Shown here one piece after another: positions 5,403 through 52,689 of a DNA stretch of 64,000 nt. The notes below the pieces were generated by a model, which had not been told where the DNA came from, made no database searches, and saw only the letters and a program-made list of their open reading frames with translations. The first letter of the stretch is position 1; every line of letters starts with the position of its first letter. The stretch is taken from contig OZ024741.1 of the NCBI GenBank assembly GCA_964016885.1, forward strand, positions 19,778,001-19,842,000, given 5' to 3'. A program made the position numbers and the translations under genes. Origin of the DNA: Eledone cirrhosa. Lineage: Eukaryota.

Positions 5403-5882
5403 TATATATATATACCTATATACTATATATATATATATATACATATATACTAGCTTTGAGTCCACGTGTGTTTTGTTATTTCAATTCAACACGCTGTTCT
5501 CTTGCCTGCTATTAAATTCCCTTCTGGCATCTTAGCAGTGGTTTTAGTTAACGTGTTGAGCACTGCTGAGGAACGATACCCGACCGTGATTAACTACACT
5601 GAAAAGTTTCGTGAAATAGTCTTTTAGGATTATATAGAGCATTTGTAGATTTCCCAAAATTGAAGGCTAAGTATTTCGTTCTTGATTTTATTTTGAGTAT
5701 GGTTTTTTCCCCAGCTTACACAAAATCTGAGGATAAAATTTTTCTTCTTGACTTGTTTTGAATTAGGATGAATTATTTATCGCATATCTTACGTTAAAAA
5801 TGTTTCATCTTGAGGCTATAGTCACTTATATGTCTGAATTATTGTCGGCTTTTTGCTTACATTAATTTCTCTATTTTCATTT

Positions 5883-6227: not shown

Positions 6228-6484
6228 AACTAAGAACAACTTGCCTTGCAAGCATAGTTTTCCCGCGTACAGCTTGTCTTCTGAAATCCCAGCCATCTGA
6301 TTGGCTGCATCGTGCCACGTGACGGCGTCTTCACCAAAGCATTTTTTTTCTCAACCGGCCATCTTGGATTCTTCTACTGATTTCGATTGAATTCGCGTGA
6401 ACGGATTTCGGAGTTCCAGTGTGGCCTTTTGGTCGAGTGGCTGCTTCAGAGACATAGTTCGTCCTGGGAGATTCTTCGGCAATC

Positions 6485-7312
6485 ATGAATCAAAATCATT
6501 TGCCGTCCTTCGCAGGCGACATCAAGTTATGGTTTTTGCAGCTGGAATGTTTTTTTGATTTAACCAAAACCAAAGAACAGCATAAACTGAAGGTACTAGT
6601 TAGTGGCTTGCCTGTGTCGTTGGCATATTCCGTGAAGGACGTGGTAACCAATTTATCCGCAGACGTTACTTATTGCTCGTTGAAAGGGGAAATTATTCGG
6701 AGGAATACCAAGTCAGCGGAAAGTCGTTTTCGGGAATTGTTAGATGATGCGCATATGGGTGACAGGACGCCAAGCTCCTATTTGCGACATCTGCGGGAGT
6801 TGAGCGACTCCCAGGGGATGGACACCCCATTCCTCAAACAACTATTTTTCTCTCGTTTACCGCCAAGTGCGCAGATGGTCTTGGTCAATAATTTGGAGAC
6901 GGAATCGTTAGATCAACTTGCCGCATCCGCGGATAGAATACTAGAGGTGGACTCTAACAGCAGTCGGCATAATCTTTGTGTGGCTTCTTCTTCTGTTCCC
7001 CCACGCAATTCTTCTGTGGCCGACAGCAAACTGTTGGAGATGATCGAAGCGCTCACCAAAAAAGTGGAGGATTTGACCGTACAACAGAGAGAGCCTTCTC
7101 AACGTTTGAGGTACCGTTCGCCTCCGTCTGCTATTCCTCGAAACCGCTACGAGTACCGTTCGCCACCGTCTTCTGTTTCTCGCCAACACTACACTTCAGG
7201 CAGCAGTAATTCTTCGATTTGTTGGTATCATGTTAACTTAGGCAGTCGGGCGCAGCGCTGTCGGGCGCCTTGTAACTATAGGAGTTCGGAAAACGCCAAT
7301 CAGAGCCACTAG
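6485..7312 (+). CDS. gag: Gypsy Gag (275 aa)
   Basis: LPSF..WFLQLE, MGDRTPSSYLRHLREL, LFFSRLP and the C-terminal CWYH-x9-C-x3-C knuckle; slippery G-GAA-AAC at 7288-7294. Confidence 0.88.
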   Translation: MNQNHLPSFAGDIKLWFLQLECFFDLTKTKEQHKLKVLVSGLPVSLAYSVKDVVTNLSADVTYCSLKGEIIRRNTKSAESRFRELLDDAHMGDRTPSSYLRHLRELSDSQGMDTPFLKQLFFSRLPPSAQMVLVNNLETESLDQLAASADRILEVDSNSSRHNLCVASSSVPPRNSSVADSKLLEMIEALTKKVEDLTVQQREPSQRLRYRSPPSAIPRNRYEYRSPPSSVSRQHYTSGSSNSSICWYHVNLGSRAQRCRAPCNYRSSENANQSH

Positions 7313-12892: not shown

Positions 12893-15513
12893 GCCTCCGC
12901 CTCCACCTTATCCCCCTCGGCTTCCGTCTACACTTCCACCCCTCCCCCGCTGCTTCCCCCTCCATGCAACGTATCCTCACCCGATCCTCACGCCTTCTGA
13001 TGCGCAACTCCATCCGCGCCTCCCGTTCCACCCTCCGCCTACTTGACCACCAACTGACCCCCACCCTCCTCCGCCTTTACTCCACCTGACACCCCCTCCT
13101 CGCCCAAGCCATCCTCTCCTTCATCCACAACCTCAACCACAACCTCTTCTCGTTCCTCAGCTCCACCAAAGCCCGCAAGCTACACCCCCCCCCCCCCATC
13201 CCCATACGCCCACCACTCTCTACCTCTCCCCCTACCCACACCCCTACCCAATTCCCCCCCCCCTTCCCCCCTCACCACACCCTCCCTTCCCTCCCCAAAC
13301 ACCCAAACACCACCCCTTGTTGTCACCATACCCCCTGACCTCCCCCTCTCTGCACCTGAGCGCTCACTCCTTAGTAGAGGCCTTCGCTTCATACCCCACA
13401 CTCCGCTCAGCGACGAGTTCCGCACCCGAACGGAAGTCGAGCGATTCGTGCGACGCACTAAGCTACAGGCACATTTCAGCCGAACGCCACCGGCTCCGAA
13501 CGCCCAGACCCGTTTCTCGCCCTGGGCCGACGACCATCTTCTTGGACGCCGGCCCCAGGGCAATTTAGCACCCTGGACGCCTTCGTCGATGCCAGCCGTA
13601 GCGCAGTAAATCGTTTCGACTTCCGCCACCGTTCCAAACGGCACAATATCTCACGGGCGAACTCCTCGTTCTCCGCTCCCTCCGTAGCCGAGATGATATC
13701 GTCATCAAACCGGCGGACAAGGGAGGCGCCGTGGTGGTATGGCGCGCGGACCTCTACACGGCCGAAGCCCTCAGGCAGCTCTGTAACCCCCTCTTTTACC
13801 GCCCTCTACCCTCCGATCCCACCCCCCTCTACCAACAACAAGTCTCCTCCACCATCAAAGACCTTATCGCCTCCTCCCTCCTCCCCCCACCGCTTCCCAC
13901 CTTATCGTCCGCACCCCCCGCACCCCCACCATCTACTTCCTCCCCAAACTCCACAAACCCGACAACCCCGGCCGCCCCATCGTCTCCGCTTGCAACTGCC
14001 CCACCGAACTCATCTCCGCCTTTCTCGACTCCCTCCTCGCCCCCCTTGTCACCACCCTCCCCTCCCACATCTCCGACACCAACCACGCCCTGCGCCTTTT
14101 CGACTCCTTCACCTACCTACCCGGCCCTCAGCCATTCCTCTTCACCCTAGACATCAAGTCCCTCTATACAGTCATCCCCCACGCCGACGGCCTTCGCGCC
14201 CTCAAACACTACCTCGACCTTCGCCCCTCCCCCATTCCCTCCACCCCACCCTCCTTCGCCTCGCCGAGCTGGTCCTCACCCTAAATTGTTTCTCCTTCTC
14301 GGGTGAGTTTTACCAACAGGTCACGGGGGTAGCCATGGGCACAAGAATGGGCCCGAACTATGCCAACCTTTTTGTTGGCCATGTTGAGGCCCAAATCTTT
14401 GCCCAGTACACCAGCCCCACGCCCGAACTGTACGGTCGTTACATTGACGACTGTATCGGAGCCACGACCCTCACCCGAGAACAGCTCGACTCCTTTCTCT
14501 CCTTCTTCTGCTCCTTCCACCCCTCCCTCCACTTCACCACCTCTATCTCCACCACCCACGTCCACTTCTTAGACATCTCCGTCGCCTTCGACCCCTCCTA
14601 CCACTCCCTCGTCACCTCCGCCTTCTTCAAACCCACCGACTCCCACTCTTACCTCGACTTCACCTCTTCCCACCCCACCCACACTAAACTCTCCATTCCC
14701 TACTCCCAACTTCTCAGGATCCGCCGCCTCTGTAGCCGTGATGCTGACTTCGAGTCCCAGGCCCTTTCCCTAGTCAGCCATTTCATCCGCAGAGGTTACC
14801 CCCTCTCTCGTCTACACCGCTCTCACCCGCGCCCGTGCTATCCCCCGCTCCACCACCCTCACCCCACGCCACCGCATACCCACCCACCGTCTCCCCTTCC
14901 CCATCACCTACCACCCCTCCACCTTACTCCTCCACCGCACCATCCGCCGCCTCTTCCGACGCCTCCAGTCCGACCCCTCCACCTCCCACATCTTCCCAAC
15001 CCCACCACTCCCCTCCTTCAAACGCGCACGCAATCTCCGCACCCTCCTCGTCCACAGCTCCCTACCCCCCAACCCACGCTCTGTCCCCCCCCCCCCGGTT
15101 CCTTCCCCTGTTCTAGGCCCCGCTGCAACACCTGTCCCCACATCACCAACACCACCACCTTCCAGGGTCCCAACGGCCACTCTCTCTCGGTCCGGCATGC
15201 CTTCCGCTGCACCTCCTCCAACCTAGTCTATGGATTTCGCTGCATGGAGTGCAGCGCGACTTATGTCGGACAGACGGGACGTCGCCTGGCGGACCGAGTC
15301 ACGGAGCACCTCCGGGATATTCGTCTCGGGGGCAGTTCCCCCATCGCCCGCCACTTTGGTGGCCCTGGACACACCGCACGCCATCTCACAGTCTGTGGCC
15401 TACTCCAGTGCCACGGAACACCCGCCCATCGCCTTACGGTCGAACAACGCACTATCTTCATCTTACAGACCCACACTCCCCCCGGCCTGAACTCCCCACC
15501 CTTATTCCTTTAG
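12893..15513 (+). pseudogene. PLE RT plus GIY-YIG endonuclease, frameshifted
   Basis: IVIKPADKGGAVVVW, GVAMGTRMGPNYANLF, GRYIDD, HFLDI, KPTDSHSYL, then CSRPRCNTC and LVYGFRC..TYVGQTGRRLADRVTEH. Confidence 0.9.
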
Positions 15514-16697
15514 CGTTCGACCGCCCCCCCCCCCCCCACACACACACTTATCCCCCACTAACACCACTAACACACCCCTCCTTTTAACCGCCCACCCCAC
15601 ACTAACAATACTAACACCTCCACTCCACCCCTCATCTGACCACCCTTCCCCAACTAACATACTAACATCCCTTCCCTCCCCACCTCCCGTATACTAACAC
15701 CCATTAACACCTCTTCACCAAACTACACACACACCAGTACACCACACTCCCTCCATAGAACCACACACACCCTTCTCTCCCCGCTCCACCTACACCCCCG
15801 CTCCACACTCACTCATCCCACTAACAGCCCTACTAATACACACACACACACCCTCCTCACTCCAAATCTCACACCTACCCATCCTCGCCTCCCTACCATT
15901 CCACCGACTGCTGCTATGCCCTTCCGACCACCTCTCAGCACCAACTGACCACAGCACTCCCACTGCTGACCACTTCCTGTTGCGCGCGCACCCCACATCT
16001 CTCCTCTTCCGACCACCGCTTCTTGGATTACCCACACGCGAAATTGACTTCTAACCAAATCTCCAAACGTCCGTGGAACTTACCAACTTTTCAACCACCC
16101 TCTTACGCCATCAACTATATAACTCACCCATACACACACCCCCAAAAAAAATTTTTTCTCGACACGCCACCCACACCCACAACACGCTTAAACCACACAC
16201 ACGTGCTTCCCACCACATATTTACACCCTCAGCCTCCTGATTCCTCTCCCCCCAACCCCCTATCCACACACGCACAGACACTCCTACCCCCCCCCCCCCA
16301 CACACACACACACGCCTCTTCCTGAACATGCAACCCCGTTCTTCCCCCAACCCTCACTTTCACATACACACACACACACACGCACACCTAACCACACACA
16401 CCACCTTCAGCCCTCCCCGCTCGGACACCCCGTCTCCCTCTCCCCACTCCACCCGCCACCACCCCTACTCACCCCACACCCTGCCACCACCTGTTTACCC
16501 CTCTTTTAATTTCAGTTTATTTTGATCATGCCTTTATTTTTAAATTTTCTCATTCCTTGTATTTTGAACATGCTTTATTTTTATTTATTATATTTTTTGT
16601 CTTTATTTGTTAATTTTTCATTCGCACCGTTTCCTTTCGCTATATGTCTCTCCACCACTCCCCTACACACCTTTTGAACTCTGTTCCCACACACTTC

Positions 16698-16735
16698 TCA
16701 CCTGAAGAAGGGCTTATGCCCGAAACGTCGTCCCC
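16698..16735 (+). ncRNA. Minimal type I hammerhead ribozyme motif at the PLE 3' end
   Basis: CTGAAGA A GGGC TTAT GCCC GAAA CG TC; stem I is only ~2 bp. Confidence 0.65.
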
Positions 16736-16819
16736 CACCTACCCCCACTCTCCTGAGCGTGAATTTAATAAACATTTATTGTACTGCCTGTCTGTTCTGT
16801 CCCTGTTCAAATTTTTCAT

Positions 16820-16889
<70 letters not shown>

Positions 16890-17010: not shown

Positions 17011-17102
17011 GTGTGTGTATGTATATATATATATATATATATACATATACACACACACAGATATATATATACACACACACGCAGGAAGGAGGGCATCATA
17101 AC

Positions 17103-17820
17103 ACACATACATACATACATGGTGGCTGCCAACTCCTTTTCGACTACTTTATATCCATGTAGGAGAACCCCTACCGATGCGCTGAACGAGTGTGACTTTT
17201 TAGTCCAGCTAGTGACTTGAGAACTCTGGTACAAACACTACACTTGTGACAATTACTGACACATAGTGCTGGGCCCATGGTACCATGTGACGACAAGTGC
17301 AGAGAGGTCTCCAGATATAAAGCAATGCCTGTGCCGTGAAGCACATACATACATACATACATACATACATACATACATACATACATACATACATACATAC
17401 ATACATACATGGTGGCTGCCAACTCGTTTTCGAGTACGGCCACTACTTTATATCCATGTAGGAGAACCCCTACCGATGCGCTGAACGAGTGTAACTTTTT
17501 AGTCCAGCCAGCGACTTGAAAACTCTGGTACAAACACTACACTTGTGACAATTACTGACACATAGTGCTGGGCCCATGGTACCATGTGACGACAAGTGCA
17601 GAGAGATCTCCAGATATAAAGCAATGCCTGTGCCGTGAAGCTTTTATAGTGAGCAAAGGCACTGCACAAAGCCAGTCCCACTCTCTTAACCAAGATGATA
17701 TTTACCAAAAAGAAGAACAAGTCAACATCATTGGATACCATCAGGGTTGCAGGTGTTATATCAGAGTTTTCCTTCTCCTAGAATTCTGCCTTGACAAAGG
17801 CTAAGGGGTCATCTCTCATA
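17103..17820 (-). mobile_element. Internally deleted RTE-derived element with a tandemly duplicated 3' end and (TATG)n tails
   Basis: Minus 5' part has the RTE-like UTR motif CTAGGAGAAGGAAAACTCTG; the 3' part encodes a C2H2 finger [23 protein letters not shown]; ~230 bp duplicated (17118-17342 and 17408-17641). Confidence 0.7.
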
Positions 17821-17941: not shown

Positions 17942-20900
17942 AAGTCAGTCAACGCTATCAGTCGCATATTTTGGCGTGGGAGACTATTTATTAAATTTAA
18001 GATGAATACTATCTCCGACAGTAATGCCACAACTACAGTCGTGTTGAATAACTGGTTATTCTTCTAACTATCCCTTCTGAAGACACCTTTTATTCGAATT
18101 CGTAGAGATATCCGACTAAATACATAATTCATTTTACAAGGATTTGCTACAAACAGCATGGCTGAACACAACATAAGAAACCGAAATTATAAATCGCATT
18201 TCTCTTGGAGTTGCGAACTTAATAATGATTTATTTAATTGTTATAAAATGGCAAAAAACAATCCCTCCATTGGCTATATGAATAGAATGAAGCTACACTG
18301 GGACGAAATGCACCCAGAGCTAAATTATTTCACAGCGAAACAATTACGCCAACAAGCGACGTTTGTCGAACGTAAAAATAAGATGAATATTATTAATTGT
18401 AAGTCCCCCACAACAAACATGTTATCAACAACACGTGCTACAGATCGCCATGCTACTAGACTTCCTAGCAGCCAGGTCGAACAGCGCCTTGAAACAACTA
18501 TGCCTGTAAGAAATTTGACACCACGTGTACCACCGAAGTCTACCTCGAATGCTGGGGAAAACACTATCGATAATAATAATAATCGAGGAAATAATAATAA
18601 TAATCGAATAAATGTGACACCACGTATACCATCCGAGTCTACCTCGACTGTTGTGGAAAATACTATCGATAATGATAATCAAAAGTATAAACAATTGAAA
18701 ATTTCCCTCAACGAAATGTTCCAGAGAGAAATTAACACGTATAAATATCTCTCTGGCTGAACGTGTTAAAATGACAATGGTGAATTAAAAGGCAAATAAT
18801 GAAATACTACGTGTTATTGACGAAATAGGGGATGAATATTTACGACGGATAAAAGCCCCAACATTTTGGCAAGTCAATGCCTGTTTATATGCCTGAGCAA
18901 TGACAGTGAAGCATTATCTTGGTGATAGCAGAGATATTAACAAGAACAAAACACCACCAAAAATACCATCATATATAACTAAAATAGAAAAAAAGAGTGC
19001 TGACCTACGAAAAAACATAGGACATGTGACAATGCTCCTTACATGCAAACAAACACAAAAAAACCTCACTCCTCACCAACAAAGAGTGAAAAATAAAATA
19101 GAGACGATGTTTGGTAACAGTAGAACCAGAACTCTCCAATATAAGCTGATCACCCGCAAACAAGAATTGAGAGCTGTTAGCGAAAAACGCCGATACCTGA
19201 AGAAGGTAGATGAGAGAAAAATGCTTAATAAAAGATTCAGACGAAACCAAACATCAGTCTATAGAGATATGAAGGGAAAAATAATAAGTGTCACTGAGGC
19301 CCCATCCCAGAAAGACATAGATTCCTTTTGGAGAAAAATATGGGGTGAAAAGAAGAATTTCAACCAAGATGCAGTGTGGCTAAGAGAAATCCGAAAGAAC
19401 TATTGCTCCTACACTACAACAAAAACATATGAAATAAGTGAGGGTACCCTTGAGACTGTGATAGGAAAACTCCAAGATAAGAAAACACCAGGAAGAGACA
19501 TGATTGTCGGCTACTGGTACAAAAAACTGATATTCTATCGGAGGTATCTTACTGACCTCTACCAACAAGTTCTTAAGGGAGATACACTTATACCAGAATG
19601 GTTGACATTAGCACAAACATTACTGGTCCCCAAGAACAAAGACACCCACTTGGCAAAAAACTACCGGCCTATTGCATGCCAGAACCTGATGTATAAGATG
19701 TATACAGCCTGCCTGAAACTATTCCTCCAAGATCACTGTGAAAATAATAACATCATCACAGAGGAACAAGCAGCTGGAAAGAAAAGGGTTTGGGGATGTG
19801 CTGAACAACTCCTAATCAACAAAACTGCGATGTCAGAGGTGCGACAACTTAGGAGGAATATGACTACAGTCTGGCTGGACTACAAGAAAGCTTTCGATTC
19901 TGTTCCCCACTCTTGGATGATAGAGACCCTCCAACTTGCTAAAGTCCCAGACATAATTGTCAGAGCCATAGAGAGGCTGTCTTCTTCTTGGTATACTATC
20001 CTAAGGTTAAAGACAGAGAGGCAGGACTCTATTTTCACTGATAAAATAAAATATTGCAGGGGTATATTTCAGGGGGACAGCCTCTCTGTGATATTGTTCA
20101 TCTTGTCATTAAACCCCTTGTCCTTTCTGCTCAAGAAATGTGAGGGATACATCATTGACTCACAGGAGGACAGAAATACGAACCTAACCCATAACTTCTT
20201 TGTGGACGATCTGAAACTCTATGCCAAGAACATGGATGGGATGAAGAAAAATCTTGACCTGATTACAACGTTCTCAAAGTATATAGGAATGGAGTTTGGC
20301 CAGGATAAATGCTCATACATGACTGTAAAGCGGGGAAAAACAACAACCCAGTCCAGCAACATTGTCATCAATGGTCTAACTGTTTCACCGATATCTGATG
20401 AGGACTGCTACAGATACCTGGGGATAGATGAGAACATATCCTATAATGGTATCTGTAATAAAGAACGCGTAACCAGGGAATACTACACCCGATTAAGAAA
20501 GATCTGGTCATCGGAACTCTCTGCGCAAAACAAAACGGTGGCTCACAATGTGTTTGCTGTGCCTGTCCTAACACCAACGTTTGGAAGACTCAGTTGGACG
20601 ATAGATGAAATCCGAGCAGTTGATGTTGGAACTCGAAAAATACTGAACAACACCGGAAACTTCCACATCAACAGTGACATAGACCGCCTTTACTTGAAAC
20701 GTAAGCAGGGAGGCAGAGGCCTAACATCAGTCCAGACAACATTTGAATGTCACATCATATCTCTCCGACAACATCTACGAACCTCGAAGCGTAGGAGCCC
20801 GCTTCTCGAGCAAGTATATCTGCATGAAACAAATAAGATCATGAGAGTTGGGAAGGAACTCCTTGAGAGATATTCCCTGTGTGATAATCAAAAACTCACA

Positions 20901-21988
20901 CCCAGGGATGTCGCTCAGCAGTATCGCAGTGAATCCATGGATGAAAAACTACATACCTATCAGCAAAAAATCATGCATGGATATGTTGCCAGGAAGCTCC
21001 AAAGTGAGAGTAATATAGATAAGGAAAGTAGTCTATCTTGGACCAACAACCGCTATATTGGCTCCCACTTTGAAGGATACGCTTTTGCAATCCAAGAACA
21101 GGAGATTAACACGAAATACATGATTCACAAAAGAGATAGGGATGCAGGCAAAACACCTAGATGTGATTACAAGTGCAGACTCTGCAGAACTAACATCGAG
21201 GATATCACCCGTGTCATCAGCAAAGATGTCATCGCGGTACTATCTACCTATGAGGCATGATGTAGTGGCCAAAACACTGTACAATGCAGTTCGTAAAAAA
21301 GATAGCCTCGATAATAAACACATTAAAAGCTACAACAATGTGGAAGACATCCGTGTACATAATATGAAAGAGTACTGGTGGAATGTTCCAGTAAAAACCC
21401 GAATAAAATGCAGGCATAACAGACCAGATATTATGATATGGGACAGGGAGAAGAAAACATGCACAGTAGTGGAAATTAGCTGCCCAGCAGATGCCAATAT
21501 AATATCAAAGATTAGTGAAAAGGAGAATATTTATGCAGAACTGATGAGAAATCTGCAGATACTCCACCCTGATTACACCTTCAGATTTATGCCTGTGATT
21601 ATTGGGGCACTGGGATATGTTAGTAACTGCCTCAATATAAATCTTGAGAAGCTAGGCTTCACAGGAACAGAAAGAACACAACTAGTTAGGAAATTACAAG
21701 TACAATCCATTAATGGAACAGTAAAAATATGTAAAACATTCCAAAAATGTTGCATCTAATAACTGCATATACACATGTACAGATACAAAGCATATACACA
21801 TGCACACATACAACTCAAAGCATACACATCCACACATACAATAACATCCATATCTACACATGCATGCATACATACATATCTACCTAGTTGATGTTGTGTA
21901 AATTCCAATGAGAGAGTCTTGTGTCTATGTTAGAAAACGACTCTCTCTCTATTGGTAAAACTTTGTGAAATTATAAAACCAGAAGAAC
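17942..21988 (+). mobile_element. R4/Dong-clade non-LTR retrotransposon (RT plus RLE), probably full length, in (CATA)n
   Basis: (CATA)n on both sides; single long ORF region with RT and C-terminal restriction-like endonuclease. Confidence 0.88.
18158..21759 (+). pseudogene. R4-type ORF: RT, zinc knuckle and PD-(D/E)xK endonuclease, disrupted by stops and a frameshift
   Basis: NYRPIAC, WLDYKKAFDSVPHSW, GIFQGDSLS, FFVDDLK, YRYLGI, RKQGGRGL, CRLC, RHDVVAK, HNRPDIMIWD..VVEISCP. Confidence 0.9.
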
Positions 21989-24745: not shown

Positions 24746-24820
24746 TTATTGACACGTGTTTCTATAACAGTTACATAACCTATTTCAATGTTATTATTTA
24801 CTGTCATTTCATCAGAATAA
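24746..24820 (-). ncRNA. Type I hammerhead ribozyme motif
   Basis: Minus: TTATT CTGATGA AA TGACAGT..ACTGTTA TA GAAA CACGTG TC AATAA (stem I TTATT/AATAA, palindromic CACGTG, GUC site). Confidence 0.75.
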
Positions 24821-25298
24821 TATTACTGAGGGCCTGTTTGGTTTTTATAGAGAATATTAGAAGGGAGGGGTGAAGTTGTTAGAAGAATAGTTGAGGGAGT
24901 GGTTTTTTGATAGCAGTGAGAATTTTTGGTGGCAGTGAGTAATTAGATTCGCATCTGTTGTTTTGACATTTTTATAGAATATATTATTGGTTATTTTTCT
25001 AAATCTATAGAAGGATTAGAGATAGTAAATATATGCGTGGTTGGTTTTGTGTTTGCACTTAATTAACATTCAGTCTTAAATTTTTCTTTCAAGTGTACGT
25101 ATCCTTTCACCCACGCATTCACACACAAACATATTTGCACACCTCTACAAAATACATATACTCACATTCACATAGTAACATGTTCATACTTACATACATA
25201 TACACATGCATATATATATACACACATGTATTCATGTACATACATACGCGTTCATGTGTATACATTTTTATACTCAACTTATCTTTATATACACACGT

Positions 25299-25453: not shown

Positions 25454-25739
25454 TATATATATAAGCACTTTAATACATGAATACACTTACATCTAACTAT
25501 ACACATCAAACATATATATATATTTACTTATTTATATACATTTTCACATATATATACATACTTATGGTCGCTTTTAGACACATTCATTATCGCATTTTTG
25601 CACCTATTCTCATCAGCATATCTTTCCATTATTAGTGTGGTAATTTGAGGTTATTAATATACATATATATGTTGAGAAGAGATTGTTCTTATATTTTTCT
25701 AACTATTCTCTATAAAAACCAAACAGGCCCTCAGTAATA

Positions 25740-25860
25740 TTATTCTGATGAAATGACAGTAAATAATAACATTGAAATATTGAATGTCTACATAACTAAT
25801 ACTTTGTAGATAGCAGCTGTTTTCAGGTTATGTAACTGTTATAGAAACACGTGTCAATAA
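25740..25860 (+). ncRNA. Type I hammerhead ribozyme motif with an enlarged loop II
   Basis: Same motif as 24746-24820 with ~45 extra nt in loop II. Confidence 0.65.
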
Positions 25861-25894
25861 ATTCCTTTCAACTAAACTGTATCCATTCAAATCT

Positions 25895-25931
<37 letters not shown>

Positions 25932-26894: not shown

Positions 26895-28923
26895 GTTTTA
26901 GTCCACTCTGACAAAACCAATAACTTATATGGTATTTCCAAGGATAATTATAACAACCTTATCCTAAAGGAACTTATGAAAAAATATCGTAAAACCAACC
27001 ATGAAAATTTAGAATACATAAACTTTGAAGCCTCTGAGATTATGTCAAAACTTGGCATTGAAAAAGAGACAGAACCATTCCTCCCAAGAACTCCGAGGAT
27101 AAATCTCAAGGATCACAAAAACAATTTTCGCACTGAACTACCTGTTAGATTAATCGCCCCCTTTAAATCAGATCTGGGGGTTGTTAGTAAAGCCATCTTG
27201 GATAGAATTATCCCACAGGTTCGTTCTAATTGCTCTTCTTTGAACCTAAATTTATGGTTTGGTACTTCTGAAGTGATTAGCTGGTTCAACAAATTGAATA
27301 ATAAAAACAAACTAAAATTTGTTCAATTTGATATTGCCAGCTACTATTCCTCCATTTCGCCTTCACTTATCTTTCGCACTTAAATATTCTGACATCACCA
27401 CAGATGAACTTCACATCATTCTCACCGCACGTAAAACCATCCTAGAGTTCAACAACGAATATTGGACCAGAGCCGATACCTCTAACAACTTCGACATCAC
27501 AATGGGAGCATCCGATTCATCCCAATTGACTGATTTAATTGGTATCTTTATTTTGAACTCTTTGAGTCGGAAAATTCCTCAACTTCGCGGTGGAATTTAT
27601 CGTGACGATGGACTCTTTACTATCTTAAATTGCAACATAGTTAACCTTAATATTATTAAGATCAATAAACGTAATCTCTTTAACCAACATAACCTAAAAA
27701 TTGAATTTGATAACAGTATCAAACTAGCTAATTTCTTGGATGTATCTCTTAATCTTGACACTGGCCTATATTACCCTTACCATAAAAACAATGAGAACCT
27801 AAATTATGTTAACTTTAAATCTAACCATCCTACTAATATCAAGAATGCTATAGTTAGTAATATTGGAAAAAGAATATCTAACCTATCTTCTAATAAAAAT
27901 ATCTTTGATGCTAACGCCAATTACTATAATAACGCGCTTTCTAAAGCCGGCTATCCTGATAAAATCAAATATAGTAAAGAAACAAATTCTAGAAGAAATT
28001 ACAGTAGAATAATTAATCATGATCATTCCAATAACTTTAATAAAAGACCTAGATACAAAAACATAATCTGGTATAATGCTCCTTTCTCCATCTCTATTAA
28101 TAACAATATTCCTAAATTATTCTTTAGTGCCTTAAATAAATGCTTCCCTCCCTCACATATCTATAGTAAAATATTTAACAAACACACTATAAAATTTTCT
28201 TATTCTACATCCTCCAACATTTCCAACATTATCTCTAAACACAACAATAAAATACTAAATACTAAATCTCTTCCTTCCAACACTGAATTTCATAATAATA
28301 GTACTCCCGACGTCATTGTAAACCCTAGGCTAATTTCTACAAACCCAAATACAACGTCAAACACAACTTCGCTAAATGTTCATAATCCCATTCTAAATCA
28401 AGAAACTATTATTCCTATCGCAAACAACTTCTCCAATCCAATTCCTTCTATAGATAACACTAGGTCACTCATTAATAATCTCTCTAATTGCAATTGCAAT
28501 TGCCCTATTAAAAATAAATGTCCTATCAACAACCATTGTCTTGATAAAAACTTAATTTACGAATGTAAAGTTATAACTGACACCAATTCCTTCACCTATT
28601 TTGGCTCCACTTCCACCTCTTTTAAAGCTCGTCTTTATAACCATCATTCGTCTTTTAAATACAAACTTAAAAGAACCAACACGGCTCTCTCAGAACTCAT
28701 ATGGTCCTTGAAAGACAAAAATATTAAATATAGCATCTTTTGGAAGAAGGTTTCTTCTGCGTCTCCATACTTGAACAGTTCTCTATCTAAAATCTGCAAT
28801 CTCTGTCTAAATGAAAAATTTACCATTATCTCTAATCTAGATTCTATAATAAATAGACGCACTGACTTGTTTTCTATCTGTTTGCATAAATTCCATAAAA
28901 CATTTCACAAAGTATACAGCTAA
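26895..28923 (+). pseudogene. Naiad-like PLE RT plus GIY-YIG, one frameshift/deletion near 27370
   Basis: SDKTNNLY, LKDHKNNF..VRLI, QFDIASYYSSI, ITMGASDSSQLTDLIG, IYRDDGL, FLDV, SNHP, IIWYNAPFS, CNC..CP...C...LIYECKV, YFGST..FKARLYNH, CNLCLNEK, CLH. Confidence 0.88.
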
Positions 28924-29706
28924 TATTCAATTCTTTATCAATTTAGAATCTTTTTCTCAAAGGCACATATATATATATACACTTCTTTTAAAAATATACC
29001 CATCTTTCTACCTTATTTCAAAGGTTATTATACATTCTATAATACTTGTCTACTCTTTCTACATCACCCCTATTTATCACTTCCCTTTCTTCTCTCTCTT
29101 CTTCTAATGTCTAATCCCTAATCTGTACCTTTTCTCACTCTTGCCTAACATAGAATCAATTATTACATAATACAACACATTCTTACTCTATATCACCTTG
29201 TAAAAATCCTTCGTAAACATATACATTTTTTTTGACGTTAGATTATTCATCCTCAATTCATTATTCTTTTCTCCCTTTCATCTAACTCATTATTCTCAAT
29301 ACATATTAACTCTTTCTTTTTCTTCGCACATATTATCAAACTCCTCAATATACAAACCTTAACTTTACATTATTTTTCTCTTCGTTAATTTTCAAATTCT
29401 TTTAATTTATACATTATCTTCCAACGGTTTTCAACCTCTCTATGTAAAACAATATATCTTTCTCAGTTATAAAAGCTATATCTCTCTCTCTATCACCCAT
29501 CTCTCCTCCTATCTCATTCTTCCTCATTATACTCCTCCCTCTCCACCTTCACTCTCATCTCCTCTTTTTTTTCATCCTTTCCACCCCCCACTCTAAATAA
29601 AATATTTTTCCCAATATCACACATCAATCTAAAATTACTTCTCATATGTTGATTTAAAACTGAACTATCCACAAGTGTTTTTTAACCTTCATATCATGTC
29701 CTCCTG

Positions 29707-29773
29707 TTTTATCTGATGAAAACACAAATATTATTGCATGATGATATTTGTTTTTGAAATGCGCATAATAAAA
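29707..29773 (+). ncRNA. Type I hammerhead ribozyme at the PLE 3' end
   Basis: TTTTAT CTGATGA AAAC ACAAATAT..ATATTTGT TTTT GAAA TGCGCA TA ATAAAA: 6-bp stem I, palindromic TGCGCA, AUA site. Confidence 0.82.
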
Positions 29774-29805
29774 TACATGAAACTCTTTTAACCATCTTTT
29801 GTTCT

Positions 29806-29854
<49 letters not shown>

Positions 29855-29864
29855 CATATATATA

Positions 29865-29990
<126 letters not shown>

Positions 29991-30099
29991 CATATATATA
30001 TATTTATATATATATATATATATATACATATATATATACATATATATATACATATATATATATATACATATATACATATATATATACATATATATATAC

Positions 30100-30174
<75 letters not shown>

Positions 30175-30761
30175 AAATGTTCGGTGAATCCATACGTACA
30201 TATATATATGTGTGCGTGTATGTATATATATATACATACTACTGTACGTCTGTATACATATATGTATGTACGTGTACATACTTATATTTAAGTAACAGCC
30301 GTACTAAGAGTGGGAAATGAAATTTCTGTTTCATTTTTTCCGTTTATCGTTTTCGGTGTACCCGGCCGATTAACCCACTCGATATGCAAATTGGGCTTCT
30401 CAGCTGTTAATATGCATAAGGTAAGTATATACGTTCAACAATCTGGCAGGAAGGTATACGTTGCTGACGATAGCTAATAAGCTTGAAACTAGTACAGCGT
30501 TCCTTTGTCAGTGTTGAACAAACGAGCAACGATGGTTGCTGGACACTACGGCTTAATACGGGATGTTTGTTTACAAACACACCGAGCATTATAATAAATG
30601 TTCGGTGAATCCATACGTACATATATATATGTGTGCATGTATGTATATATATATACATACTACTGTACGTCTGTATACATATATGTATGTACGTGTACAT
30701 ACTTATATTTAAGTAACAGCCGTACTAAGAGTGGGAAATGAAATTTCTTTTCATTTTTTCC

Positions 30762-30767
<6 letters not shown>
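30175..30767 (+). mobile_element. Second HHR-bearing non-coding repeat (421-bp unit, ~1.4 copies); retrozyme-like
   Basis: 30175-30347 is repeated at 30596-30767; HHR in between; (TA)n flanks; another copy at 52390-52652. Confidence 0.8.
30449..30506 (+). ncRNA. Type I hammerhead ribozyme (family B)
   Basis: GAAGG-TAT-ACGTTG CTGACGA T AGC TAATAA GCT T GAAA CTAG TA CAGCGT-T-CCTTT: bulged stem I, palindromic CTAG, GUA site. Confidence 0.85.
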
Positions 30768-30792
<25 letters not shown>

Positions 30793-37963: not shown

Positions 37964-38325
37964 TCAAAGGTATATATTGAGTTAGAAACTCAAAATAGCC
38001 TCTTACAATAAAATAGCTCTAGGAAAGAGGTTTTTCGAGCCGTATATTATAATTGAATATAAAAGAAAAACGAACACAGATATATAGATATATGTGTTCA
38101 AATCGTAAGGGACCAGATTCGCTAAGGTGAAAAGAATACTAACTATAGACAAAAGGGTTTGCCAGACTCAATTTAAGAATAAATAAATACAAACCGGAAT
38201 TGTAGCAATTCCGGTTTGTATTTATTTTCACTGGTACCTATACAGCCATGACCTTAGACGTTTCTGCCCCAGTAGACCCATAAGAGGTAGACCCCCCCCC
38301 CACCACCACCACCACCATAACCTCA

Positions 38326-39777
38326 ATGGCTAAAATGAATCCCATGGAAAGGTGGATTGGGTGGACCAAAGCTGTACGGACCCCCCAAAACAATGATCAG
38401 GTAAGAAAAATGGTCGCACATGCAATAGGGGCTAGTATCAAAACTACCCTAAAGGGCCACATATTCAAGTTCAACGAGAAGATCTACACCCAAAATGAGG
38501 GAGCAGCCATTGGCGTCAGCGTAGCTGGTGATGTTGCCAACCTTTTTATGGTATGGTGGGAAAGGAGACTTAAAGATCTCCTTAATGAGAGCTCCATAGA
38601 CCTCATCATGTACTCTCGTTACGTAGACGATATCAATATAGTTATAAGAACATCCCCACAAGAGAGCACTAACAAGTTTGATTTAGAACGTAGCACAATG
38701 GAAAGCATCCAGCAGATAGCTAACTCCATACACCAGAGTATAACTGTAACTATCGACTACCCTTCCAAACACCCTAACAATAGACTACCTGTATTAGACA
38801 CGGAACTCTGGATTAACACTATAGACGAGAGAGCCCTAATTCTCCACTCACACTATGATAAACCCATGGCCTCCAAATACCTGATACCCAAAAACTCAGC
38901 AATGTCCAGTAGTGCTAAGTTTAATATTCTGATCGCAGACTTGGTACGAGTGATGAAGAACGTGTCCCGCATGTGCGACCCAACAGAAATGGAAAGACAC
39001 ATCCAACACTTCATCAACCGCATGCAGTTCTCTGGCTACAACCAAAGAGACAGAATCAGAGTATACGAAGGAGCCACGGAGAAGTATAAGACCCTCATAG
39101 AACTGGACATGAAAGGAATTTGCCCATTATACAGGAGCAAATCATGGAATAGCTTAGATAGGGCTAGACATAAGATAGGGAAAGCCACCTCATGGTATGA
39201 CAACCAGAGATACCAGAGTGTCATGTTTGTGGACGCTACCCCTGGAGGGAAATTAGCTAACCAGTGTAGAAAGGCCCTGAGAAAGACCCACTTAAAGATT
39301 AAGGTGGTAGAAAAGCCAGGAACCACCATAAAATCCCTGAACAGCAAAACCTACCCTTTCAAGAAAATCCACGGTAGTAATAGGAAATGTATCATATGTA
39401 AGGTAAACCCCTGGATAAACTGTAAAACTAGAAACGTAGTCTATAGCATAAGATGTACAGAGGGTACTTGCAGAAACATGACAACAACATACATAGGCGA
39501 GACAGCTCGTAGCATAGGTGAAAGGATAGACCAACACTGGGGGGAACTAAAAGGACGAAAAAACGGTTCAGTACTACACGAACATGCCAGACAACAACAC
39601 GACGGTAACATAGACAACATAGAAATTAGAATAATATCTAAACATAGAAATGACCCAACAGAGAGGCAAATCAGAGAGGCCAGTGAAATAGAACTTAGAA
39701 GGCCAAGGCTAAACAGAAAAAATGAATGGAATAACAACAACACCCAAACAAACAACACTGACCTAAGAGAAGTATAA
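38326..39777 (+). CDS. PLE RT C-terminal half plus GIY-YIG endonuclease (Nematis-like), 5'-truncated but uninterrupted, 483 aa
   Basis: GAAIGVSVAGDVANLFM, SRYVDD, LPVLDT, YDKPMAS, MFVDATPGG, KVVEKPG, CIIC..CKTRNVVYSIRC, YIGETARSIGERIDQH, RQIREA. Confidence 0.88.
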   Translation: MAKMNPMERWIGWTKAVRTPQNNDQVRKMVAHAIGASIKTTLKGHIFKFNEKIYTQNEGAAIGVSVAGDVANLFMVWWERRLKDLLNESSIDLIMYSRYVDDINIVIRTSPQESTNKFDLERSTMESIQQIANSIHQSITVTIDYPSKHPNNRLPVLDTELWINTIDERALILHSHYDKPMASKYLIPKNSAMSSSAKFNILIADLVRVMKNVSRMCDPTEMERHIQHFINRMQFSGYNQRDRIRVYEGATEKYKTLIELDMKGICPLYRSKSWNSLDRARHKIGKATSWYDNQRYQSVMFVDATPGGKLANQCRKALRKTHLKIKVVEKPGTTIKSLNSKTYPFKKIHGSNRKCIICKVNPWINCKTRNVVYSIRCTEGTCRNMTTTYIGETARSIGERIDQHWGELKGRKNGSVLHEHARQQHDGNIDNIEIRIISKHRNDPTERQIREASEIELRRPRLNRKNEWNNNNTQTNNTDLREV

Positions 39778-40027
39778 ATAAATAAATAAATAGATAAATA
39801 AATTAATTAATACATACACAAGCACAATAACAACAAACACACACTAGTAAAGATAGAATACATTAACCAATACACAGTCACCCAATCACGAACACACATC
39901 AAACAAAACACTATACACACACGCAAACGCATGCACAAAGAAGACAAAATAAAATAAACAAATAAATATATAAACAGACTAAATAAAGATGGCGTAGAAA
40001 ATACAATGCAACGGGAGGAAACAATAG

Positions 40028-40075
40028 CACCACTGACGATGTTGCAGATGTGCAACGAAAGAACTTTGATAAACT
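40028..40075 (+). ncRNA. Hammerhead motif at the 3' end of the Nematis-like PLE
   Basis: CTGACGA T GTTGCA GATG TGCAAC GAAA GAAC TT; imperfect stem I. Confidence 0.7.
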
Positions 40076-40353
40076 ATATATATGTGTTTGTGTCTATATT
40101 GTATCTGTATTTTTGACCGTTGGTCAGTCAATGGCAACATTGAGGACCTAATAAATTAGATTAACCGATATAAAGGACACAGAAGCGAAAAGCGAAAACC
40201 AACCAAACAGTGAGTGTGTTCTGTTATTAATTCTGGCAATATTACACAAATATGACCCTTCCCAAGTATAACTATATTTGTTCCGACACACGATTTCATA
40301 TTAAAAACCTCGCAAAACTAATACATATATATATATATATATATATACATATA

Positions 40354-43931: not shown

Positions 43932-46498
43932 GGAAACGAGGGGACCAAAGCTGTTAGCTGGGCCCGCGTGACAGAACCCAAAAAGAAGGAGCAGATCCAC
44001 TATCCGGTCTTTGCGAGACCAAGATGGACGGGTGAGACTTGAACCTAAGCAGATGTGCGAGGCTTTTCAGAAGCACTTTGCCGGATTGTTCGGAAGGGGC
44101 GGGGAGCCGGTTGGAGATGTGAACTTCGGTCCATACCTCGACGGCCTGCCGCGTCTCTCGGACAGGGAGGCGAAGTCCTGCGAGGAGCCGATTTCAGCCG
44201 CTGAGATAGAGGACGTGCTGAGCCTATGCGGCAAACGCAAATCCCCGGGTCTCGATGGTCTTCCATACGAACTGTATCTAGCTATGCCGGACTTGTTCCC
44301 CGATCTCCTCGAGGCGGTCAACTGCAACTGCCAACAGAACGGGAGAATTCCCTGTGCTGTGACCAAGGGCGTAGTCACGCTAGTGAGGAAGGATGAGAAC
44401 AAGGGGGACGATATAAATAATTTCAGGCCCATAACTATGCTAAATACAGAGTTACAGATTTTGGCCAAGGTGCTAGCAAAGAGGTTGGCGCTTGTCGTGG
44501 GCAACCTGGTGGGAGATGCGCAGACATGTGCTATCCCGTCCAGGTCCATCCACGACAACCTCCACCTCATGCGATACATCATAGAGAGGGTTGGGAACGA
44601 ACCCGGCTTTGGTGGGGCCCTGATCAACTTGGATCAATCTAAGGCATTCGATAGGGTCGACCATGGTTACCTGGATGCGGTGCTAGCGGCGACAGGCTTC
44701 GGAGCCGTTTTCAGGGGCTGGATCAATGCCATGCACAGCAGCCGCATCTGCTCTAGGGTCAAGGTGAACGGCTACCTCTCGGAGCCGTTCGAAATCGCGC
44801 GGTCCATCCGACAGGGGTGCCCTCTCTCCTCCCTTCTGTATGTAATGACTCTAGTGCCACTGCTGCGGAAGTTGGATTTGTTGCAGGGCATCCCGTTGGA
44901 ACCGGGATTGCGGAAAGCGGTGTCGGCCTACGCCGACAACGTAACAGTAATGGCGTCTACGGCCTCGGAAATTGGGGCGATCGGGACCTTACTGGAGGAG
45001 TACGAAAGGTTTACAGGGGCTAAGCTGAACCGGGACAAGTCGATCGGTCTGCAACTCGGCACGTGGAGGAGCAGATCGATGCCCTCCGATGGCGTCGTCG
45101 GGCACTGGACGGAGGGCGCGGTGAAGAAGAACTGGGGTGAGGTAACGAACAGGGTGTTTGCACTGACCCAGAAGTGGGCCGAGTGCAAACTGTCCCTGAA
45201 AGGTCGGGCGGAGGTGGCGAACACTTATATAGCGTCCGTCATCTACTACCGCCTGACCGTTGTGCCTTGCCCAAGGGAAACGCTCGCCAAAATGGAGCGC
45301 GCACTCTTCCAATTCCTTTGGAAGAAGGGAGCTCCTATGGTGAGGAGATCCATCTGCTGTCAACACCCTTCGAAAGGGGGGCTGGGGATGCCGTGGCTAA
45401 TGATACGTAAACACGCATTAAGGCTACGGTACCTCCAGGTATTCCTCTCCGGTCAACCGGTGTGGGCCCCGTTTGTGAGGCGAGCCTTTCCCAGACTCGT
45501 CTCACTCACCGAGCTGCAATCCTGGGTCAAGCAAAGACCGAGAAAACTGGGCGCCTGGCACACCGAGTGTGCCCAGGCGCTCACGGCTCTCTGGCAGGCG
45601 GACCCGGCTGTCAGTGGAGAATCCACCTCGTCATTCTATAGAGGGCTGGTGGTTAGCAGGTGCGACGATGCCCTCGAAGAAGCCCTAGGCATGGAGGAAG
45701 ACGAACTGGCCAACCTGTTCGGTAGGACATTCAGCTCGGGACCCATGCGCTACAGAAGGGCTCTGCCCGTTCGAGAAAGGCTCTACAGACACGGGCGCCC
45801 GGGTAGGGACCCCTCGAAAAAGATCTCTCCCAGATGCATGTGCGACGAGGAAACCGTTGCACACGCATTGGTACACTGCTCGGGAATTGCTGATCTGTGG
45901 GGCTATGTCGAACAACTGCTGTCAAGGGTGGGGCCGATCCGGTTGACCACCGAGTCTATTGTAACGATCAAGCCGCCTCCCCTCTTCAAAAACGAAGAAG
46001 AGGCGGTGTTTCTGTGCGTAATAGCCATGGCGAAAGAGGTTGTATGGTGGACGTGTCTGAAAGGACTGAGGTCAGACACCTTTCTCTCTGGCCAACAACT
46101 GGTCCGTTTCTTCCGATATCATTTCGGAAGAAGGATCAGGATGGAGAGAGAGGTGCTGCACCCCAGCCGTTTTTATGAAAGGTGGCTGAAAGTGGCGAGA
46201 ATGGCCCGTGTGAATGGGCCTTCACTCTACATCAGTCTATAGGTGAGGAAGATGAAAGACCAAGGGAGCACCCATTCTCTGTGCTCCTGAGGAAAAGGGT
46301 TGCACCCTTTTGGGGGGGGCGACCCCCCAAGGCGCCTCCTCTCTATTGAGGATTTTGTTATAAATTTTATTCTGTTATATTTTATTTTATTTTTATATTT
46401 TGTTATTGCCTCCTCCTTATTGAGGACGCCTTGTTTTGTAAACTCCCCTCTTTGTACTTGTCCCACTTTTGATGCCCTGGTGGCAAATAAAAGAAACA
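43932..46498 (+). mobile_element. L1/Tx1-clade LINE, 5'-truncated copy, in (TCTA)n
   Basis: Open ORF2 remnant to 46242 (KSPGLDGLPYE, NFRPITMLN, LDQSKAFDRVDH, RQGCPLS, AYADN, GGLG, C..ETVAHALVHC); ends GCAAATAAAAGAAAC then (TCTA)n. Confidence 0.92.
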
Positions 46499-48646: not shown

Positions 48647-51600
48647 ATGGCTGTGCTAAGAGTAGGATGTCTAAATGCGCGTGGCCTGGGCTCATCTTGG
48701 AAGCAAGCAATGCTTCTAAATGACCTCAGGTCACGATCTATAAATGAGATGGTTATCTGCGAGGCCCGAATCAGCAGCATGCGACAGCTAGCCCCCACCT
48801 TTGACGACTTTGAGATGCACGCATCTCTCTGTCAGCCCGGAGGTGGGGGTGGGGTTGTCGTTCTGCTGCAAAAACATCTGGGTCTTGCCACACAGATAGT
48901 TCACTTGGACCCAGGGGGTCGACTGGTGGTGCTGGACCTTGGCAGTGGTGAAGGTGGAGCCTTTAGGCTGGTAGCCGCATATGCCCCTTTTGGGACAGAG
49001 CAGCCCGACTTTTTCCAGCGTCTGGAGTCTTTTCTAGGGACGTCCCGTTCCCTGCTTTTAGTGGGGGACTGGAATGGTATCCTGGATGCACGTTGGGACT
49101 ATGCAGGGGCATGTTCCGAAGAGAGGGGTGCAACAGCCTCAAGGGGTTACTCGGCCGATTTGAACTGGCCGATAGATTTCGACTAGATTTTCCGACGGTG
49201 CCAACCTGGTCTTGGTCAAATCGCAGCGGATCATCTAGGTCGTATCTAGATAGGTTTTTAGTTAGAAATAAGGACAGGGACTTTTTAAGTTGTCCAGAAA
49301 TGCTCATGGTTGGCTACTCAGACCACAAGTTGGTGACCTGCATGGTCAACCTTGATAGAACTCATAGACAGGGACCCGGTTACTGGAAGCTCAACTTGTC
49401 CTTGCCGGCAAGTAGAGCTTACAGGGATCGGATTAGTACGTTAGTTAAGGAACGGTTGACTGGAGCGATCGTCAACAGCAGGTGGTGGGTATCTCTAAAG
49501 AGAGAGATGAGAGTAGTCTCGATAGAATTTAGTAAGGTTCTAGCTGCGGATAGGAATAGGAAGGAAAGGGAGCTAATAGATAGAGTAGAAGAGGCAATTA
49601 GAAGCGGCGACGTGGCCAGAGTGCTAGCGTCGAGAACGGCTTTGAGCCAGTTTTTCGACGCGAAGCACGAAGGCTGCATTGTCCGAAGTAAAATACGTGC
49701 TCTAGGGAACGAGGGGACCAAAGCTGTTAGCTGTGTCCGCGTGACAGAAACCAAAAGAAGGAGCAGATCCACTATCCGGTCTTTGCGAGACCAAGATGGA
49801 TGGGTGAGACTTGAACCTAAGCAGATGTGCGAGGCTTTTCAGAAGCACTTTGCCGGATTGTTCGGAAGGGGCGGGGAGCCGGTTGGAGATGTGAACTTCG
49901 GTCCATACCTCGACGGCCTGCCGCGTCTCTCGGACAGGGAGGCGAAGTCCTGCGAGGAGCCGATTTCAGCCGCTGAGATAGAGGACGTGCTGAGCCTATG
50001 CGGCAAACGCAAATCCCCGGGTCTCGATGGTCTTCCATACGAACTGTATCTAGCTATGCCGGACTTGTTCCCCGATCTCCTCGAGGCGGTCTACTGCAAC
50101 TGGCAACAGAACGGGAGAATTCCCTGTACTGTGACCAAAGGCGTAGTCACGCTAGTGAGGAAGGATGAGAACAAGGGGGACGATATAAATAATTTCAGGC
50201 CCATAACTATGCTAAATACAGAGTTACAGATTTTGGCCAAGCTGCTAGCAAAGAGGTTGGCGCTTGTCGTGGGCAACCTGGTGGGAGATGCGCAGACATG
50301 TGCTATCCCGTCCAGGTCCATCCATGACAACCTCCACCTCATGCGATACATCATAGAGAGGGTTGGGAACGAACCCGGCTTTGGTGGGGCTCTGATCAAC
50401 TTGGATCAATCTAAGGCGTTCGATAGGGTCGACCATGGTTACCTGGATGCGGTGCTAGCGGCGGCAGGCTTCGAACCCGTTTTCAAGGGCTGGATCACTG
50501 ATATGCACAGCAGCCGCATCTGCTCTAGGGTCAAGGTGAACGGCTACCTCTCGGAGCCGTTCAAAATCGCGCGGTCCATCCGACAAGGGTGCCCTCTCTC
50601 CTCCCTTCTGTATGTGTTGACTCTCGAGCCACTACTGCGGAAGCTGGAGTTGTTGCAGGGCATTCCTTTGGAACCGGGATTGCGGAAAGCGGTGTCGGCC
50701 TACGCCGATGACGTGACAGTAATGGTGTCGACGGCCTCCGAAATCGGGGCGATCGGCACCTTACTGGAGGAGTACGAAAGGTTCACAGGGGCTAAGCTGA
50801 ACCGGGACAAGTCGATCGGTTTGCAACTCGGCACGTGGAGGGGCAGACCGACGCCCTCCGATGGCATCGTCGGAGGGCCCGCTGAAGTTGCTCGGGGTCT
50901 GGTTCGGACCAGACCTCCAGCTGGAGAAGAACTTGGCGGAGGTCACGAACAGGGTGTTTGCACAGACCCAGAAGTGGGCCAGTTGCAAACTATCCCTGAA
51001 AGGTCGGGCGGAGGTGACGAACACCTATATAGCGTCCGTCATCTACTACCGCCTGACCGTTGTGCCTTGCCCAAGGGAAACCCTCGCCAAGATGGACTGC
51101 GCACTCTTCCAATTCCTTTGGAAGAGGCGGGCTCCCTTGGTGAGGAGATCCATCTGCTGTTAACACCCTTCGAAAGGAGGGCTGGGGAAGCCGTGGCTAA
51201 TGATGCGTAAACACGCATTAAGGCTACGGCACCTCCACGTATTCCTCACCGGTCAACCGGTGTGGGCCTCGTTTGTGAGACGAACCTTTCCCAGACTCGT
51301 CTCACTCACCGAGCTGCAATCCTGGGTCAAGCAAAGACCGAGAAAACTGGGCGCCTGGCACACTGAGAGTGCCCAGGTGCTCACCGCCCTCTGGCAGGCG
51401 GATCCGGTTATCAGTGGAGACTCCACCGCAACATTCTATAGAGGGCTGGTACGCAGCAGGTGCGACGACGCCCTCGGAGAAGCCCTAGACATGGAGGAAG
51501 ACGAACTGGCCAGCCTGTTCGGTAGGACATTAAACCCGGGACCTATGGACAACTTCCAGAAGTCCCTGGCCTGGCAGTGCTACCGAGGGGCTCTACCTGT

Positions 51601-52379: not shown

Positions 52380-52389
52380 CATATATATA

Positions 52390-52652
52390 TGGCAGGAAGG
52401 TATACGTTGCTGACGATAGCTAATAAGCTTGAAACTAGTACAGCGTTCCTTTGTCAGTGTTGAACAAACGAGCAACGATGGTTGCTAGACACTGTACGGC
52501 TTAATTCGAAATGTTTGTTTACAAACACACCGAGCATTATAATAAATGTTCGGTGAATCCATACGTATATATATATGTGTGCATGTATGTATATATATAT
52601 ACATACTACTGTACGTCTGTATACATATATGTATGTACGTGTACATACTTAT
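52390..52652 (+). mobile_element. Partial copy of the 421-bp HHR repeat (family B); HHR at 52395-52452
   Basis: Near-identical to 30444-30707 with the HHR sequence unchanged; (TA)n flanks. Confidence 0.85.
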
Positions 52653-52689
52653 ATATATATATATATATATTAGAAAGTGAGGTTTTTTT

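Follow-up and report, generated by a model that had tools for sequence, protein, structure and literature searches.

The 64,000-nt stretch of Eledone cirrhosa DNA analysed here (the window) holds two copies of a hammerhead-bearing repeat at (TA)n tracts, and raises the question of how a repeat that encodes no protein is inserted. For the mobility of animal retrozymes, the available text of Cervera and de la Pena 2020 (PMC7229834) names Penelope-like elements (PLEs) as candidates only, and a 2026 preprint (bioRxiv 10.64898/2026.07.22.740005) adds phylogenetic support and describes the mechanism as still to be elucidated. Our analysis makes it very probable that the repeat is a non-coding element of 420 bp, whose type I hammerhead covaries and whose copies end in 3' at one of two fixed sites next to (TA)n, likely copied in trans by a PLE RT-endonuclease from a circular or uncleaved RNA of more than unit length.

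Two truncated copies in the window

Copy 1 (30175..30767, + strand) comprises 1.41 units, is truncated at its 5' side and ends at unit position 173, the tail site described below. It lies between a (TA)n target tract at 29806..30171, which doubles as the 3' flank of an unrelated PLE-like element, and a second (TA)n tract at 30768..30792, which confirms the first-pass annotation of 1.4 tandem 421-bp units between (TA)n. The two repeats of copy 1, with a period of 421, are set apart by one substitution and one indel; the figure of 421 comes from one extra base in the first repeat, and the natural cut-to-cut units of the family measure 420-433 nt.

Copy 2 (52390..52654, + strand), annotated earlier as a second copy at 52390-52652 with another start point, is indeed such a copy: 0.63 unit, 5'-truncated at unit 270, with a short-site end (unit 113) followed by (TA)n; by blastn, 52387-52657 shows 96.3% identity to unit positions 267-537. 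Its hammerhead core (52410..52440, + strand; predicted cut after 52440) has the same letters as that of copy 1, and outside the hammerhead the two copies differ by four substitutions and two indels. The annotated contrast between an unchanged ribozyme and changed neighbours therefore holds letter by letter, but the absence of changes in 58 nt, set beside 6 events in ~205 nt, does not by itself reach significance (p ~0.2). As each window copy has one hammerhead, neither is able to release a unit-length RNA by double cleavage, and any circle would derive from multi-unit loci elsewhere.

The hammerhead ribozyme

The sequence of copy 1 reads as a type I hammerhead at 30443..30511 (+ strand) with a long stem I that contains an internal loop: stem I is CGUUG/CAGCG; the core CUGACGA occupies 30464-30470; stem II (30471-30484) consists of a U.U mismatch and three AGC/GCU base pairs capped by a UAAUAA loop, and is followed by GAAA; and stem III has two base pairs (AC-UA-GU) inside the palindrome ACUAGU, with GUA ending at 30494. 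The ribozyme annotated at 30449-30506 with a GUA site thus stands as to type and predicted cut (after A30494), and its stem I proves longer than was given. Stem I can be extended further, to 30433-30519 (fold z -3.04, with 1 of 200 shuffles as good). The Rfam model HH9 aligns to the hammerhead at 19.7 bits (E 0.013), well under its gathering score of 52; Rfam microRNA matches were discarded as TA-repeat noise.

An intact type I catalytic core is indicated by this direct reading, by covariation and by conservation in a sample collected independently of the ribozyme. For covariation we aligned 44 of 50 distinct hammerhead sequences, leaving out six that are truncated, rearranged or core-mutated. 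The named structure is paired in 93.4% of cells, against 24-48% in slid controls, and double changes, most of which come from the split between families A and C (see below), occur in 8 of 20 pairs: three in stem II, three in proximal stem I and two in distal stem I. Invariance of the core in this alignment is built in by the selecting pattern, and conservation was therefore measured in 75 segments anchored outside the ribozyme, counting variants common to at least three copies. Such shared variants account for 0.76% of core letters and 0.57% of stem II letters, compared with 2.9-5.4% in non-ribozyme regions. Proximal stem I is variable (8.75%), mostly at the pair 287/323, where U.G, A-U and G.U alternate; both positions vary in a further match set as well. 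The conservation and covariation that the annotation had proposed to look for are thus found, the covariation in stems I and II between families and the paucity of shared variants in core and stem II.

The ribozyme probably acts as a dimer, because a 2-nt loop is unable to close stem III and the ACUAGU palindrome pairs with itself (-6.8 kcal/mol); a dimeric ribozyme has been reported for amphibian retrozymes. From the U.U at the base of stem II and the 2-bp stem III we predict weak activity of the monomer. An axolotl motif of similar kind was reported to be 22% cleaved in 1 h and, in bioRxiv 10.64898/2026.07.22.740005, eight of nine Xenopus elements to be without cleavage. Cut-to-cut monomers are predicted to fold as branched circles, with z-scores of -8.8, -15.8 and -9.6 (25 shuffles each), those of families A and B being inflated by TA-rich stretches.

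An abundant non-coding family

In the 3.0-Gb assembly, where the window occupies G000:C2:19778001-19842000, the exact 31-nt core has 12,380 matches and its reversed control none, so that a chance origin of the hammerhead repeat can be dismissed; identity is 98-99% for most of the 40 top-scoring candidates, which are spread over many contigs. A looser pattern retrieved two sister families beside that of the window (A): family B, with a UAACAA loop, a unit of ~456-540 nt and an internal TA expansion, and family C, with stem II GUUG/CAAC or GAUG/CAUC and a unit of 466-469 nt. The three are alignable over the whole unit and together hold ~36,000 cores (A+B 26,560, C 9,312; controls 0). The units have a low GC content (0.31-0.38) and form arrays of 2 to 31 hammerhead-bearing units. 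The sole ORF of at least 100 aa that lies fully inside the element has 105 codons on the minus strand and no Pfam match; the element is non-coding and shows no LTR structure.

An octamer, ATGCAAAT, at 30384..30391 (+ strand) in copy 1, is placed ~80 nt upstream of the hammerhead core and recurs in 60 of 69 natural units of the three families (A 19/27, B 8/8, C 33/34). The promoter of newt satellite 2 includes an octamer. Newt satellite 2 is likewise a tandem hammerhead repeat, its ribozyme works as a dimer (PMC7229834) and its promoter is internal and of snRNA type (PMC2220036); in the retrozyme, ATGCAAAT is a possible promoter element.

Taken together, the sequence data characterize the repeat as a real animal non-LTR retrozyme, abundant and recently active, with a clear PLE insertion footprint. 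The element class is already known; we found no paper on the family itself in the literature, where the supplements of PMC7229834 and of the bioRxiv preprint may list related repeats.

Two fixed 3' ends

The ends of insertions were mapped over the first 24.3 Mb of contig C1, in all segments that match exactly a 23-nt anchor lying downstream of the ribozyme; they number 77, a few of which are duplicates. Their 3' ends fall at unit 161-175 in 37 segments, at 105-118 in 32 and elsewhere in eight; that is, 69 of 77 lie within 29 of 421 positions, or 7% of the unit. There are thus two fixed 3' sites ~59 nt apart, and the 5' ends are scattered over the unit. The 3' flank is TA-rich in 64 of the 77 segments, the 5' flank in nine. 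A largely overlapping, ribozyme-anchored sample gave 60 of 75 ends at the two sites and 5' ends in all ten bins, and the corresponding two sites also bound examples of families B and C.

Inverted insertions obey a further rule. Among the 77 segments, 34 are arranged as 17 inverted pairs whose members meet at their 5' ends; of these pairs, 15 combine a short with a tailed end, two a short with an irregular end, and none two short or two tailed ends; without two duplicated pairs, the count is 13 of 15 independent pairs.

In copy 1 the short end falls at window 30708 (unit 113), in the loop of a short hairpin, UACUUA-UAUU-UAAGUA (30696..30716, + strand), the putative RT start site 1. The stretch from there to the other fixed end (30709..30767, + strand; 59 nt) corresponds, on the end map and by comparison with PMC11167929, to the optional tail of PLEs, and its end would be RT start site 2. 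Fixed 3' ends with an optional tail and variable 5' truncation, a tail on one end of inverted copies, and an AT-rich target are all traits of the PLE type. On the anatomy of the insertions, the two-end pattern is to be read as the PLE footprint of two internal reverse-transcription start sites.

The circular permutation of junctions that the first-pass annotation had expected is not seen: because 3' ends are fixed and 5' ends are scattered, what appeared as different start points is 5' truncation. The annotation had set against its own reading the case of fixed termini attached to a coding PLE; the termini are fixed, and no copy attached to a coding PLE was found.

A probable RNA template of more than unit length

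The first cut site is crossed by 65 of the 77 segments and a second by 16, and 47, counted from the tail end, exceed one whole unit and reach into the tail of the previous unit. Insertion from a circular or multimeric RNA, as annotated, accordingly keeps its more-than-unit template and loses the reason given for it, the permuted starts. A linear, ribozyme-cut template was rejected: in 30-nt bins reaching up to the two cut sites, 5' ends stop in 6 of 71 and 3 of 19 cases, within the range of neighbouring bins in this small sample, and 5' ends at unit 311-345 number nine of 77 where ~6 are expected. Passage of the cut site without such a pile-up implies a circular or an uncleaved template. With start sites 214 and 274 nt beyond the cut, moreover, copies made from a linear cut-to-cut monomer would be no longer than 274 nt and would lack the ribozyme.

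Forty-two repeat pairs share 44 variants between the two repeats of one insertion, against 8.4 in shuffles (maximum 18), which suggests that lineages keep re-duplicating single units; such re-duplication would offset 5' truncation. Two templates explain the passage of the cut site as well as the re-duplication: a ligated circle, which PMC4209133 and PMC7229834 propose, and an uncleaved multimer from tandem donors. The sole PLE system tested in vitro (PMC11167929) did not require hammerhead cleavage and used mainly unprocessed RNA as template, which favours the linear multimer over the circle. We give the ligated, self-paired circle an even chance, regard the uncleaved multimer as a serious possibility that falls well short of even, and hold template jumping to be rather unlikely.

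Long arrays were considered, and dismissed, as evidence that copying proceeds by rolling circle: variants recur in periodic subsets of their units, and 15 differences are common to units 1 and 3 of one array. This periodicity points to later DNA duplication, by which, to judge from the shared variants, long arrays have partly grown. The longest example, a 31-unit, 14-kb array of family C (G000:C1:5738327-5752443; L203, L204), has units that differ by 0.5%, with periodic shared variants, and keeps the inverted anatomy, with the short end on the long arm and the tailed end on the inverted arm.

Coding PLE-like elements in the window and the genome

The window contains a 5'-truncated coding PLE-like element at 38284..40340 (+ strand), with an RT and a C-terminal endonuclease, its own hammerhead near 40035, a tail and (TA)n; its designation as a PLE relies on visual reading of motifs, on its hammerhead and on its anatomy, the Pfam RT match being sub-threshold only. 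Its family counts 33,603 first-look candidates at 94-95% aa identity, with open frames of 1,100-1,200 aa and up to 1,217 aa. Used as a positive control for the end map, this family has the same kind of double end next to (TA)n: of 37 rows, 17 stop at a short end and 14 at a tailed one, 31 in all. We detected no sequence homology between the retrozyme and this family; the short end lies at the loop of a small AU hairpin in both. The family is a candidate trans-mobiliser of the retrozyme.

A second PLE-like element (27316-29805) has an ORF at 27316-28923, a long 3' region and its own hammerhead at 29713; its (TA)n flank harbours copy 1 of the retrozyme, and members of its family elsewhere have two ends ~90 nt apart. 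Other resident hammerhead families have similar double ends at (TA)n, so that the family at 38284 is one candidate helper among several. A third PLE-like ORF, at 13462-16820, carries a minimal hammerhead-like motif just ahead of the (TA)n tract at 16820.

An RT plus GIY-YIG ORF continuous with the repeat was not found by tblastn of the window PLE frames over the sampled loci and by reading of junctions. PLE ORFs near retrozyme copies are nested neighbours, with (TA)n between or with a joint at mid-ORF truncation points. Among the sampled loci, which cover few of the genome's PLE families, there was no pLTR homology to a coding PLE. Rare ACTAGT hammerhead variants (225 matches; 30 loci and 8 regions examined) proved to be either family copies that have mutated or degenerate motifs standing alone, none of them linked to an ORF, and loose ends in public contigs gave no ORF junction among the matches listed; matches in organisms B and C (a few low-depth contigs) were left out.

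At one locus (L242:1800-1830) the tail end of a retrozyme is joined without (TA)n to a 5'-truncated PLE ORF; a template switch or the deletion of a target site may account for this single case. Motifs of the form CTGA(T/C)GA...GAAACTAGT, highly variable and scattered through unrelated sequence without an ORF linked to them (L224, L227, L231, L236, L244-L251), are possibly remnants of an old PLE family.

Alternative explanations

Could a circle have been opened or primed at random points, so that the junctions are circularly permuted? Tandem copies of more than one unit, free passage through the cut site and the strong predicted folding of the monomers as circles would all suit this explanation. 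It is scarcely credible in view of the confinement of 69 of 77 3' ends to two sites that make up 7% of the unit, and of the examples from diverged families that end at the same two sites. Fixed ends refute random priming; the circle itself stays among the possible templates. Movement of a SINE-like element by a LINE (L1/RTE-type) that favours (TA)n, the hammerhead being incidental, would draw on the LINE-type RT ORFs that are common in the window and on copy 2, which follows a (TCTA)n tract 3' of such an ORF. This explanation is highly improbable: it is at odds with two alternative 3' ends internal to a tandem unit, with the strict pairing of short and tailed ends in inverted copies, and with the covariation and conservation of the hammerhead; nor did the sampled loci give any match to L1-type flank sequences.

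The copies might also be 5'-truncated pseudo-LTR remnants of a coding PLE, subsequently amplified locally as a satellite, the route proposed in bioRxiv 10.64898/2026.07.22.740005. The same preprint reports homology to annotated elements, PLEs in nearly every case, for 24 of 57 Xenopus retrozyme families, and both the PLE end signature and the local duplication in long arrays agree with such a route. We nevertheless consider it very unlikely for the present copies: the 47 segments that pass a whole unit continue into the previous tail and never into an ORF, and nearby PLE ORFs are set apart by (TA)n or joined at mid-ORF truncation points. That copies on many contigs are 98-99% identical, each with its own fixed ends, indicates that the unit itself retrotransposes. 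An ancestral origin of the retrozyme from a pLTR is possible. The preferred reading is therefore a non-coding unit copied in trans by a PLE protein.

A proposed mechanism and its relation to known systems

Under trans-copying by a PLE protein, tandem loci would be transcribed; two hammerheads would pair through the ACUAGU palindrome and cut after GUA, a pairing proposed because stem III, with its two base pairs and 2-nt loop, is unable to close by itself; and the monomer would be ligated into a self-paired circle. A PLE protein would then nick (TA)n and start cDNA at the two internal sites 214 and 274 nt past the cut, using one start site per DNA strand in inverted insertions, and the cDNA would stop at random; local DNA duplication would later enlarge some loci. 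A stricter version of this proposal, tentative and in our judgement a little short of even, sees here the footprint of a retrozyme circle reverse-transcribed by a dimeric Penelope-like enzyme in a single event: two structure-defined internal starts would be used, one per nicked strand, RNA shape rather than shared sequence would be recognised, and the ~36,000 copies in three families would record the process.

The retrozyme shares with the metazoan non-LTR retrozymes of coral, mussel and axolotl (PMC7229834) a non-coding, low-GC tandem unit, a type I hammerhead, thousands of copies and a predicted self-paired circle, and the axolotl HHR_Amex2 has a similar U.U at the base of stem II and a weak stem III. 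Its unit of 420-540 nt compares with circles of ~170-400 nt in that work, where cleavage and circRNA are shown, whereas the present family is known from sequence alone; conversely, insertion ends with the PLE two-site footprint are mapped here. Vertebrate retrozymes interpreted as PLE derivatives (bioRxiv 10.64898/2026.07.22.740005) likewise co-occur with PLEs and have dispersed monomers and multimers in arrays; that study argues from phylogeny and co-distribution, ours from insertion anatomy, with no pLTR homology found in the sampled loci.

In the description of Craig et al. 2021, PLE insertions are partial tandems truncated on the 5' side; they include an inverted copy, and as a rule just one of their ends bears a tail. 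The Poseidon protein of Anolis was shown in vitro (Frangieh et al., PMC11167929) to cut AT-rich DNA and to extend its two strands; synthesis begins at two sites inside the RNA, and the tail is the stretch between these. PLEs (PMC11167929, Craig et al. 2021, PMC4209133) and the retrozyme have in common 5' truncation, partial tandems, an inverted 5' copy, a tail on one end and AT-rich targets, as well as a hammerhead upstream of the RT start sites and a palindromic stem III. Unlike PLEs, the retrozyme has no ORF, a tail of ~59 nt rather than 30-40, and a long canonical-type stem I where PLE hammerheads are minimal; none of the PLE families of this genome that were examined is homologous to it in sequence.

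The family thus supplies end-map evidence on how animal retrozymes move, of a kind that we did not find in the available portions of the cited retrozyme and PLE papers. The two-start-site tail signature, recently explained biochemically for a PLE, now appears on a non-coding repeat in thousands of recent copies, and the mobility question becomes testable with a defined RNA, two predicted starts, a (TA)n target and a PLE family with frames of 1,100-1,200 aa in the same genome. The near-strict pairing of short and tailed ends in inverted insertions bears on how a PLE dimer handles two DNA strands.

Further hammerhead-like motifs and coding regions

Another hammerhead-like repeat forms an inverted pair at 24750-24830 and 25715-25900, with cores at 25745 (+) and 24815 (-), and further hammerhead-like motifs lie at 5566, ~31105, ~40347 and 59617. 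At 17101-17641 there are 1.8 copies of a 299-bp repeat with (CATA)n tracts, in which a motif scan gave no hammerhead core and which is present in L027 too. The regions 6458-10299, 18897-21260, 43972-46242 and 48967-51210 hold an LTR-retrotransposon pol region (RT, RNase H, integrase) and three LINE-type RT frames.
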